DNA of 33,727 nt from Acidimicrobiia bacterium (GCA_036985935.1 BTQP01000003.1:1-33727); one strand, 5' to 3'. Counted from the stretch's first letter, positions 31,778-33,727 are shown. Numbers and translations are program-made. Notes: a model not told the origin generated them from the sequence alone.

Positions 31778-32395
31778 CTAGATCTCGTCCAGCAGTCTCT
31801 GACGTTTCTCCTCGTACTCCTCCTGGGAGATGAGGCCCTCGTCGAGCAGCTCTGCGAGTTTCTTTATCGAATCCGCGGCATGCGGTTTGAGTTCCTGTGT
31901 CGTCTCGGTCCGACCCGACAGATCCATCGTTCTCCGCTCACGAACCTTGTAGAGCGTCGTCTGGAACCGGTCGGGTCGAGGGATGTTGTAGAAGGTGCTT
32001 TGCCCCGACGAACCGGCCGACTCGATCAACAGGTCACCGGCCCCAAGCATCCGTTCGAAGACCGTCTGGGAGAAGTTCACGTTGGTGATGTTCTCGAGCG
32101 GGATCTCGACCCCGGATTGAGCGATGAGACCGGTCCGGGTGATCAGACGCTCTGTGGTCAGCACATATCTCGTGAACCACCAGTTGATCAAGGGTCGCAC
32201 AATGAGGTAGAGACCGGCGAGCAATACCACGAGTGAAATCCAGACGGCTGCGTCGTCGGTGAACCCGAACGCCAAACCGATAACGATCAGGACGCCGAGG
32301 AACCACAAGAACGGGATGAACAACAATTTCCAATGAGGACGAAACGACGTAACGATCGTCTCGTCAACACTCAACGCATCTTCGGGCCAAGACAT
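31778..32395 (-). CDS. Membrane protein with bacterial PH domain and C-terminal SHOCT domain
   Basis: RPHWK, two TM helices, YVLTTERLITRTGLI...IPLENI...Q...ERMLGAGDLLIESAG and C-terminal KKLAELLDEGLISQEEYEEKRQRLL. Confidence 0.88.
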   Translation of the reverse strand: MSWPEDALSVDETIVTSFRPHWKLLFIPFLWFLGVLIVIGLAFGFTDDAAVWISLVVLLAGLYLIVRPLINWWFTRYVLTTERLITRTGLIAQSGVEIPLENITNVNFSQTVFERMLGAGDLLIESAGSSGQSTFYNIPRPDRFQTTLYKVRERRTMDLSGRTETTQELKPHAADSIKKLAELLDEGLISQEEYEEKRQRLLDEI

Positions 32396-32440
32396 GAGGC
32401 CAGCATAGAGAACTCGCGCAGCGAGCGCATTGACTACATG

Positions 32441-32490
32441 AACGCGAGAAACCCCAAGGAAGCCGAAGCCCCCTTGGGGTTCTCCACGTT
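32441..32490 (-). terminator. Long terminal hairpin / putative intrinsic terminator of structured RNA 1
   Basis: Minus strand AACGUGGAGAACCCCAAGGGGGC-UUCG-GCUUCCUUGGGGUUUCUCGCGUU forms about 22 bp. Its G-U wobbles are valid only on the minus strand. No long U-tract follows. Confidence 0.7.
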
Positions 32491-32791
32491 GCCTCGGGCC
32501 TTTCGGCCTCCGGTTCCGCTGCGTCCCTTCCGGTCTTTCAACCGTCCGTTTCGCTGCTCCGCAAGCGGAGCTGGATGTGGATCGAAACCCGCACCCTCCT
32601 CATGTGCCTCGTCGACCGAAGCCGAGCGGGCGGGGCCTAAGCCCTCGACACCCGAAGGTGCCTCACAAGGTCCCCGATTCGTCTCCGAACCGGCTGCCGG
32701 CTGTGACACCGGCCGCCTCCGGTTTCCCGTTGGCGCTCGCTCCCGAGTTGCCCCGTTTGCGAGCCGCTCAGGGTTTCCCCCTTGCGGTAAT
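32441..32791 (-). ncRNA. Candidate ~350-nt tetraloop-rich structured non-coding RNA (family not recognised)
   Basis: About 13 consecutive hairpins on the minus strand, capped by GAAA x4, GCAA, GAGA, UUCG x4, CUUG, UUAG and one larger loop. G-U pairs fix the strand. There is a candidate promoter upstream and a terminal hairpin, and no credible ORF. Confidence 0.8.
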
Positions 32792-32796
32792 AGTCA

Positions 32797-32824
32797 ATGT
32801 TGCAGACTTTGTAGCGTTCGGCAA
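32797..32824 (-). promoter_or_regulatory. Putative sigma-70-type promoter for structured RNA 1
   Basis: Minus strand TTGCCG (32824-32819), N16, CAACAT (32802-32797). The first hairpin starts 10 nt downstream of the -10. Confidence 0.5.
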
Positions 32825-32890
32825 GCCAGATCGCTGGTTCGTTTTCGCGAGTCACGACGAGTTTTCGCGCTCGGCTGGTAGCTTTCCCAG

Positions 32891-33541
32891 ATGCGGCGCA
32901 AAACCGGTCGATTTCCCGTCAAAATTCGATTCGTATGGGCACTTTTGCTCGCATTTGCGATGGTCGCGGCCGGATGCACAGTTAGCCAGTCACCTCTGCC
33001 GGACACGACAACAACACGACAGCCAGCGGATGTGCCCGTGGCCGATGAGCTCACACTTCACACCGAAGGCATCGGTCCGTACGAGGTCGGGGACGAGGCC
33101 GAGTTCGTCATTGCAGGCATCACAAACGCGATCGGCGGCTGGGACGCCGACTCCTCGGATGAGGCCTCTCCCGTTCAGCTCCCCGAATGCGGGGATGCTT
33201 CCTCGAGGGTCGTGTCATGGGGTTCACTCGCGCTCGTGTTCGTACGGGGGTACGCACGCGAGACGTTCGTGAGTTGGTCGTTTGGTTTCGATCCCGTATC
33301 GGGGAACTCCGACGACCTACGTGGGCTCGGTCTGCGCACCGAAGCAGGAATCGGACTCGGCGCGACGAGACAGGAGCTCGAAGATGCGTACCGAGCAGGA
33401 CTCGAAATCACGAATCAGCCTGCCATCGATTCAGCGATCTTCGCCATCGACAAAGCACAGGAACCGCACCTCTCAGGCAAACTCGATTCTTCCGGGCCAC
33501 AAGGCATCGTCGACCTCATCCAGATCGAGCCGACATGCTGA
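32891..33541 (+). CDS. Hypothetical lipoprotein
   Basis: Basic N-terminus, hydrophobic stretch ending VAAGC (lipobox-like), Pro/Thr linker and an acidic globular domain. -10-like TAGCTT lies 6 nt before the ATG. Confidence 0.8.
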   Translation: MRRKTGRFPVKIRFVWALLLAFAMVAAGCTVSQSPLPDTTTTRQPADVPVADELTLHTEGIGPYEVGDEAEFVIAGITNAIGGWDADSSDEASPVQLPECGDASSRVVSWGSLALVFVRGYARETFVSWSFGFDPVSGNSDDLRGLGLRTEAGIGLGATRQELEDAYRAGLEITNQPAIDSAIFAIDKAQEPHLSGKLDSSGPQGIVDLIQIEPTC

Positions 33542-33551
33542 GAGAACTCCC

Positions 33552-33604
33552 AAAAGAGAAACCCCGAGGAAGCTCGACCGAAGTCTCGCCCTCTCGGGGT
33601 TCTC
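33552..33604 (-). terminator. Terminal hairpin plus U-tract (intrinsic terminator) of structured RNA 2
   Basis: Minus strand GAGAACCCCGAGAGGGC-GA-GAC-UUCG-GUC-GA-GCUUCCUCGGGGUUUCUC-UUUU. Confidence 0.75.
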
Positions 33605-33727
33605 AATTGAAGTGAACAAGTTCACTCCAGTCCGAGATTCGCCAGTTGCCCGACTCCTCCCGGGGTGTTCTCGTCGCATTCGCAGACCGAAGTCGTCGCC
33701 TGTGACCAGAACCCGCTGCTCCGAACC
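33552..33727 (-). ncRNA. 3' part of a second tetraloop-rich structured RNA (5' end beyond the window)
   Basis: Minus-strand hairpins GAC-UUCG-GUC, CCGGGA-GGA-GUCGG-GCAA-CUGGC-GAA-UCUCGG and GGAGUGAA-CUUG-UUCACUUC, then a terminal hairpin homologous to that of RNA 1. Confidence 0.68.

Follow-up and report, generated by a model that had tools for sequence, protein, structure and literature searches.

In mycobacteria and Streptomyces, the RNA Ms1 binds the core of RNA polymerase. According to PMC4191392, this actinobacterial RNA is ~300 nt long, has a sigma-A-like promoter, ends in an intrinsic terminator, and lies close to the replication origin in 84% of cases. Its flanks are genes for a HAD-IB hydrolase and an oxidoreductase, to go by Tables 1-3 of PMC9130861 and passages of PMC4191392 and PMC6582537, and "PH" is the flanking-gene phrase given for the predicted Ms1 genes of the Cellulomonas group in Table 3 of PMC9130861. 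Water, soil, and sediment harbor abundant Acidimicrobiia, most of them uncultured, and our literature search returned no RNA regulator described in this class. Here we analyze a stretch of 33,727 nt from an Acidimicrobiia bacterium (GCA_036985935.1, BTQP01000003.1:1-33727; the window, from the genome called G000 below), which ends within a structured RNA, RNA2, and carries a second RNA, RNA1, one gene away. The pair represents an uncatalogued RNA family, new although its general kind is familiar, that is structurally well supported and very probably confined to one order of uncultured Acidimicrobiia.

Hairpins and fold of the RNA at the contig end

An earlier note on this DNA, made from the sequence alone, had listed hairpins on the minus strand directly after the stop codon of a lipoprotein-like gene; on rereading the sequence, all four were found on the minus strand of 33552-33727 exactly where the note had placed them. 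We consider it highly likely that this segment forms the 3' end of a non-coding and highly structured minus-strand RNA that is transcribed independently and would be ~410 nt long when complete. R1, a covariance model built on the four window hairpins (169 positions, 48 pairs), was used to follow the RNA elsewhere. The features of the cluster in the window are as follows.

33552..33727, minus: RNA2, the 3' ~43% of a structured non-coding RNA (R1 match, orthologue alignment A1, contig end)
33718..33727, minus: hairpin loop and 3' strand, the 5' strand falling past the contig end (alignment A2)
33664..33714, minus: long irregular UUCG-capped hairpin, R1 helices 1-3 (MFE fold and covariation)
33632..33663, minus: GNRA-capped hairpin with a conserved purine internal loop, GGA / GAA, R1 helices 4-5
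33609..33628, minus: 8-bp hairpin, GGAGUGAA[CUUG]UUCACUUC, R1 helix 6
33552..33604, minus: intrinsic terminator with tandem G.U pairs, GA/GA internal loop, UUCG cap, and U tail
32891..33541, plus: lipoprotein-like ORF between RNA2 and RNA1, 216 aa, no Pfam match
32842..32869, minus: two phased CGCGAAAA repeats, 17 nt upstream of the RNA1 -35
32796..32824, minus: putative RNA1 promoter (-35 TTGCCG at 32819-32824, 17-nt spacer, -10 AACATT at 32796-32801)
32444..32788, minus: RNA1, ~345 nt with about 13 hairpins in a chain (start predicted from the promoter, end from the terminator)
31778..32395, minus: gene for a bPH_2 + SHOCT membrane protein, the conserved downstream neighbor (Pfam, synteny)

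At the contig end, nucleotides 33718-33727 align with a UUCG hairpin of the full-length orthologues (A2 columns 239-268). The hairpin at 33664-33714 reads GGGUUCU..GAC[UUCG]GUC..AGAACACCC, and that at 33632-33663 reads CCGGGA-GGA-GUCGG[GCAA]CUGGC-GAA-UCUCGG, a module that RNA1 has as well. In the R1 alignment of 24 sequences, changes on both sides were seen in 10/10 pairs of helices 1-3, in 7/11 pairs of helices 4-5, and in 7/8 pairs of helix 6. The RNA2 terminator, GAGAACCCCGAG-A-GGGC-GA-GAC[UUCG]GUC-GA-GCUU-CCUCGGGGUUUCUC at 33556-33604 followed by UUUU to 33552, combines the GC-rich hairpin and 3' U run of a Rho-independent terminator, although a simple terminator scan picked up its inner part alone (33564-33577). 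Nearly a palindrome, it terminates the convergent lipoprotein-like gene as well, the stop codon of which lies 11 nt before 33552. Its core, AACCCCGAG/CUCGGGGUU, is invariant or nearly so among the 24 sequences, and its two tandem G.U pairs are retained in 18 and 23 of them; together these fix the strand and indicate a constraint on sequence besides shape.

Folding of 33552-33727 favored the minus strand by 20 kcal/mol: its fold of -82.5 kcal/mol (z = -3.59) was equaled by 1/200 shuffles, whereas the plus-strand fold was weaker, -61.9 kcal/mol, yet also stood out from shuffles (z = -3.11). R1 scored 174.7 bits on the minus strand at 33552-33721 and 21.5 bits on the plus strand. Among its 24 best matches, all orthologous sequences, 95.4% of cells pair, compared with 84.6% after shuffling and 35.6-58.3% with slid partners, and both-side changes were present in 29/48 pairs, with any of five measures reached by 0/500 shuffles; these values come from an alignment (A6) fitted to R1 and so biased toward the structure. 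An independent RNAalifold analysis of five full-length RNA2 orthologues found compensatory change in 41/133 pairs. Compensatory changes, together with insertions and deletions of whole hairpins, argue against coding and hence against the tail of a protein-coding gene, an outcome that the earlier note had named as one that would count against it. The same holds for the trailer of an rRNA or tRNA operon and for a known Rfam RNA, none of which was present in the window or in the loci of six complete relatives.

Because the window is the entire contig G000:C3 of a fragmented assembly (205 contigs, 80.9% complete, 60% G+C), the truncation of RNA2 is an assembly edge, and the ~410-nt length of the RNA in relatives agrees with the earlier reading of 33552-33727 as a cut-off RNA. 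The missing RNA2 sequence was absent from the G000 contigs when these were searched with the orthologous 5' part and the nuclease gene (the assembly being 80.9% complete), and an exact 40-nt scan of metagenome contigs for sequence past 33727 gave no match; the relatives, on the other hand, supplied the 5' end, the promoter, and the copy number.

Complete orthologues, the paralogue RNA1, and distribution

Of 41 related genomes searched at the DNA level, with G000 among them, 28 gave matches. One relative, G003, has a complete RNA2 orthologue with the RNA1 orthologue directly after it, and three others (G004, G008, and G016) have a lipoprotein-like gene between the two, as in the window. Six full-length RNA2 orthologues were aligned with the window fragment, and the order of elements is two CGCGAAAA repeats ~20 nt apart, 17 nt, TTGCnC, a 17-nt spacer, TACnTT, the ~410-nt RNA, and the terminator. 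The window thus holds the last 176 nt of RNA2 and lacks ~235 nt of RNA and ~85 nt of promoter. The RNAalifold consensus of five full-length sequences contains ~14 local hairpins. Judged from these hexamers, the RNA2 promoter would be sigma-A-like and sit behind two phased TCGCGAAAA repeats, with the start placed accordingly by prediction; two phased CGCGAAAA repeats 17 nt 5' of the -35 are present for RNA1 and RNA2 orthologues alike, the RNA2 promoter of G000 itself falling past the contig end. The missing part of RNA2 is expected to hold a CUCGAG-GAGGAGCCCAGCC-UUCGAGAG hairpin, then the promoter with its two repeats, and then a divergent PDDEXK_1 gene.

Two local peculiarities were seen among these loci. 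RNA2-type RNAs at 12/54 bPH-anchored loci (L003, L004, L005, and others) carry the hairpin CUCGA-GGAGG-AGCCCAG-CCUUC-GAGAG almost unchanged; it contains a GA/GA internal loop and is closed by a loop of 7 nt, and a G000 copy would fall in the unassembled part. In G003, the spacers after both terminators (L004 1376-1440 and 1936-2000) consist of short CAGAT/CCAGATA-like repeats that are absent from the other genomes read.

RNA1 folds with z = -4.57, and the alifold consensus of eight orthologues is again a hairpin chain, with compensatory changes in 25/95 pairs. Its putative promoter was read from conserved columns of alignments A7 and A1; a simple sigma-70 consensus scan of 32300-33727 called no promoter, and the repeat pair occurs once in the window against 0.01 expected. 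By blastn, the terminator alone is common to RNA1 and RNA2 (73% over 49 nt), and no further RNA copies were found in G000. R1, which represents the 3' domain of RNA2, nevertheless matches RNA1 at 32442-32596 with 34.3 bits (E 4.6e-10), and the alignment keeps the GGA-stem-GNRA-stem-GA hairpin and the terminator in order. The resulting terminator module, (GA)GAACCCCRAGRGGG..CUYCCUYGGGGUUUCUC after the GGA-stem-GNRA-stem-GA hairpin, is found in both RNA2 (174.7 bits) and RNA1 (34.3 bits). RNA1 and RNA2 relatives also have a common promoter layout and a common 5' hairpin design, in which a 4-bp stem leads through a 3x3 purine-rich loop into a short GNRA-capped stem; this design is present in every unit read. 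With the promoter layout, the 5' hairpin, the GGA/GNRA/GA hairpin, and the terminator in common, RNA1 and RNA2 are paralogues, as the earlier note had proposed for two co-oriented RNAs. RNA1 orthologues differ by gain or loss of whole hairpins. The G002 orthologue, for instance, has an insertion of ~80 nt with extra hairpins (L008 about 1740-1825; A7 columns 195-280), and G000 and G003 have an additional GAAA-capped hairpin ahead of the RNA1 terminator.

In all likelihood, then, a gene of this family begins with two phased TCGCGAAAA(C) repeats, followed after 17 nt by a TTGCnn -35 and after another 17 nt by an nAnnTT -10; continues with a 5' hairpin and a body of UUCG- or GNRA-capped local hairpins that gains and loses hairpins; and ends with a terminator hairpin conserved in sequence, not merely in shape.

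R1 was present in 27/28 same-order Acidimicrobiia genomes and in 0/92 genomes from other orders of the class, and a further set of same-order genomes was positive in 4/5, with two of the positives (G027 and G038) flagged unpublished. Over 72 sources, 143 matches were obtained at E<=0.01, all in Acidimicrobiia-type loci; among such loci around the bPH gene, 50/54 had an R1 match, and for three of the four misses the upstream flank is shorter than 200 nt. The repeat pair lies upstream of RNA units in 45/54 bPH loci, all matches but one being on the RNA strand. A strict version of the repeat pattern was found in 4/6 other same-order genomes, 0/24 genomes of other orders of the class, and 3/370 genomes of other classes, and its reversed control matched in 12 genomes. 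Neither two genuine Ms1 loci and a Streptomyces-like 6C locus (L123-L125) nor the three Rothia loci scanned (of 20 fetched) gave an R1 match; the Rothia "bPH" matches belong to a 612-aa protein inside an operon. Contigs titled Kiloniellales, Armatimonadetes, or Acidobacteriota (L043, L049, L071-L073, L078, and L085) carry the bPH gene, some with the RNA promoter repeats, and these labels probably do not reflect the true lineage of the contigs.

Whole-genome scans found two RNAs per genome in 5/5 genomes, both in one cluster. A few genomes have three copies through recent tandem duplication, and unit length across the order ranges from about 110 nt (the first unit of G037) to about 480 nt. In G028, one RNA unit is present as two identical copies of ~590 nt in exact tandem (L026 6430-7560, minus), with degenerate CGCGACTCG/TAACTCG short repeats filling the spacer between them; the whole RNA gene has been duplicated recently.

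At every locus checked, the cluster is flanked by a PD-(D/E)XK nuclease gene and the bPH-SHOCT gene. The lipoprotein-like ORF, in contrast, is present in some relatives and absent in G003. A divergent stand-alone PDDEXK_1 gene (~280-380 aa) lies upstream of the first RNA in 5/5 Pfam-tested loci from at least three families, with its start codon ~40-55 nt from the TCGCGAAAA repeats, and behind it follows a UvrD-helicase+PDDEXK_1 gene in both loci tested (L030 and L026). Since the divergent PDDEXK_1 gene is next upstream of RNA2 in relatives, the cluster ends at RNA2; the earlier suggestion that it might continue past 33727 was not borne out, and exactly two RNAs were present in 5/5 genomes. On the other side of the cluster, a TAnnnT hexamer stands 6-7 nt before the bPH-SHOCT ATG (TATGCT in G000, 32396-32407, minus; TAACAT in G003, L004 1985-2011), which suggests that the bPH-SHOCT mRNA may be leaderless and start right after the RNA1 terminator. 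Orthologues of the bPH gene were found in 118/301 sampled genomes of the phylum (7/301 flagged unpublished); R1 had no match at 22 bPH-orthologue loci from other orders and classes, and two bPH loci outside the order (L155 and L175) have no large intergenic region upstream.

A promoter element shared with nrdJ and possible roles of the RNAs

The repeat pair also occurs upstream of nrdJ, the gene for class II (B12) ribonucleotide reductase, in G000 (contig C9), G017, and G021, three of five genomes, which belong to three genera, all of one family. The CGCGAAAA-N11-13-CGCGAAAA pairs are located as follows.

G000 C9 15791-15817 (= L118 1501-1527), minus: repeat pair at nrdJ
L110 1500-1529: repeat pair at nrdJ
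L137 about 1520-1547, minus: repeat pair at nrdJ

In all three, the pair is 17 nt from a -35-like hexamer, and the gene was confirmed by Pfam. A second promoter-like site lies about 130 nt downstream of the repeats, and NrdR-box-like palindromes follow. Since the same repeats precede nrdJ, they would be a promoter element of a small regulon and not part of the RNA, and their shared arrangement suggests such a regulon common to the RNA genes and nrdJ. We found no description of the TCGCGAAAA motif in the literature. A looser repeat pair with a TTG is present upstream of an uncharacterized short ORF in G000 (C36 2540-2586; L132 1501-1547) and may be due to chance.

How the RNAs might act can be proposed only tentatively: they may be stable, abundant, trans-acting molecules that serve as a multivalent protein-binding platform, either a sponge or a scaffold. 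A protein partner would recognize the recurring combination of tandem purine mismatch, short stem, and tetraloop, or the invariant hairpin of the terminator, or both. A factor reading the TCGCGAAAA repeats, which have the same register at the nrdJ promoter, would govern transcription, and the RNAs would be co-regulated with class II ribonucleotide reductase; with such a factor in common, their expression would follow growth, replication, or DNA stress. The loops are generic stabilizing tetraloops with no common recognition motif, so the platform idea draws on an internal-loop resemblance seen by eye, and the fast evolution of the body could alternatively mean that only the ends matter. Taken together, the identity of the RNA and the platform mechanism make an explanation that we regard as probable. 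It is unlikely that the family is a new, order-wide class of modular hairpin-array riboregulators that is turned on along with nrdJ through an undescribed TCGCGAAAA-binding factor and, during replication or DNA stress, targets either the head-to-head nuclease/helicase-nuclease or RNA polymerase; if true, this riboregulator reading would add an RNA arm to a DNA-metabolism regulon, one without a described counterpart.

Several other explanations were weighed against a trans-acting RNA pair. That there is no functional RNA here, merely a GC-rich intergenic stretch with a bidirectional terminator of the lipoprotein-like gene, would account for the near-palindromic terminator scoring on the plus strand (21.5 bits) and for a plus-strand fold that beats shuffles (z = -3.11); it is scarcely credible given compensatory changes in all four hairpins across 24 sequences, conservation of the element in G003, which has no lipoprotein gene, and order-wide conservation at a fixed locus. 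A role in cis, with the RNA1 terminator gating the bPH-SHOCT gene and RNA2 as a remnant, fits the short distance of ~50-100 nt between the end of the RNA1 terminator and the bPH start codon in most loci. We regard this as very improbable, because no co-oriented ORF follows RNA2 (a convergent gene or the RNA1 promoter is found instead), each unit has a strong terminator and, by prediction, its own promoter, the TAnnnT -10 ahead of the bPH ATG in G000 and G003 suggests a separate leaderless mRNA, and more distant loci have >2 kb between the cluster and the bPH gene. The RNAs might instead serve the neighboring DNA-repair genes or a replication or DNA-damage response, for instance by regulating, inhibiting, or scaffolding the PD-(D/E)XK nuclease and the UvrD-helicase/nuclease. 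The divergent PDDEXK_1 gene in 5/5 loci, the UvrD-helicase+PDDEXK_1 gene behind it in L030 and L026, a nuclease start codon just ~40-55 nt from the TCGCGAAAA repeats, and the presence of the same repeats before nrdJ, the product of which makes dNTPs, all point that way; gene order conserved inside one order is, however, a weak sign of a functional link, RNA1's own copy of the repeats is far from the nuclease gene, and the TCGCGAAAA motif does not seem to resemble actinobacterial SOS or RecA-NDp motifs, so we hold this to be quite unlikely.

Finally, the RNAs could be functional analogues or diverged homologues of Ms1 or 6S RNA that buffer RNA polymerase in non-growing cells, which we find rather doubtful. 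In its favor, 6S (RF00013) and Ms1 (RF02566) were found in 0/5 genomes of the order, with control genomes positive for 6S, so that the role of a polymerase-binding RNA looks unfilled and the family becomes a candidate for the missing global RNA regulator of the lineage; the RNAs also recall the actinobacterial origin, ~300-nt size, sigma-A-like promoter, and intrinsic terminator given for Ms1 in PMC4191392, and RNA1 lies directly upstream of the bPH gene, as the "PH" flank of the Cellulomonas group in PMC9130861 would have it. Against it, the window gave no match at the RF02566 gathering score of 162 bits, and 32300-33727 and a full-length orthologue pair gave none even at E<=10, although the same model recovered 315.8 and 235.6 bits in L123 and L125 (Ms1 loci reached via the 6C RNA anchor); RF00013 (gathering score 46.4 bits) had no match in the window or in the orthologue pair; and R1 was blank at genuine Ms1 loci. 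Genuine Ms1 is a long rod, whereas the consensus folds of RNA2 (n=5) and RNA1 (n=8) are chains of local hairpins, with two weak long-range pairs each and no closing stem or central bubble. The flanks are PDDEXK_1 and bPH_2+SHOCT genes instead of the HAD flank that we confirmed at a genuine Ms1 locus, and the cluster is far from dnaA, at 33-38% of the chromosome in three near-complete genomes (0.79 of 2.3 Mb in G037, 1.32 of 3.5 Mb in G196, and 0.73 of 2.2 Mb in G472). A unit length of ~110 to ~480 nt and bPH orthologues outside the order without such an RNA also speak against this relationship.

Comparison with known RNAs

No Rfam family matched at gathering level in the window, in the loci of six relatives, or at 17 bPH loci elsewhere, and at E<=10 a search of 32300-33727 and of a full-length orthologue pair returned noise alone, whereas Rfam recovered Ms1 and 6C at the Ms1/6C control loci; neither tRNA nor tmRNA was detected in the window or in seven relatives' loci, and our literature search yielded no description of this hairpin-chain family. 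A mobile element or REP is ruled out by the fixed locus, the two copies per genome, and the absence of terminal inverted repeats. What emerges is a pair of large RNAs that is present across the order, backed by covariation, and equipped with a defined promoter element and terminator module. Annotators gain a new RNA family, the 169-position model of which already tells this order apart from the remainder of the class. Experimenters gain three handles: the RNA as bait, the TCGCGAAAA repeats as DNA bait, and nrdJ as a candidate co-regulated gene. The combination of conserved ends with a hairpin-swapping body is also informative on how structured RNAs grow.

With Ms1, the family has in common a stand-alone actinobacterial RNA of several hundred nucleotides with strong predicted structure, a sigma-A-like promoter, and an intrinsic terminator, and occurrence in genomes without detectable 6S RNA. 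It differs in being present as two paralogues per genome of very variable length, in the lack of a covariance-model match in either direction, and in its repeat element and terminator, genuine Ms1 loci having no such repeats and another terminator. Like 6S, these would be stable structured regulatory RNAs, but their consensus folds contain no open-promoter-like bubble. The raiA, OLE, ROOL, and GOLLD RNAs are likewise hundreds of nucleotides long, tetraloop rich, supported by covariation, and of unknown function. The hairpin-chain RNAs have no Rfam match to them, and no long-range helices or pseudoknots were detected in them; their body is modular and poorly conserved, whereas conservation is strongest in the promoter and terminator. 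Sponges of the CsrB/RsmY/RsmZ type differ in sequence, to which there is no similarity, and in their exposed GGA motif: the loops here are UUCG, GNRA, or CUUG, and the GGAG runs pair with CUUC/CUCC in stems. These sponges are nonetheless the closest analogy for how the hairpin-chain RNAs might work, as both kinds have paralogous genes, a variable number of hairpin modules, an upstream activating sequence (here, the putative role of the repeats), an ordinary promoter, and a strong terminator.
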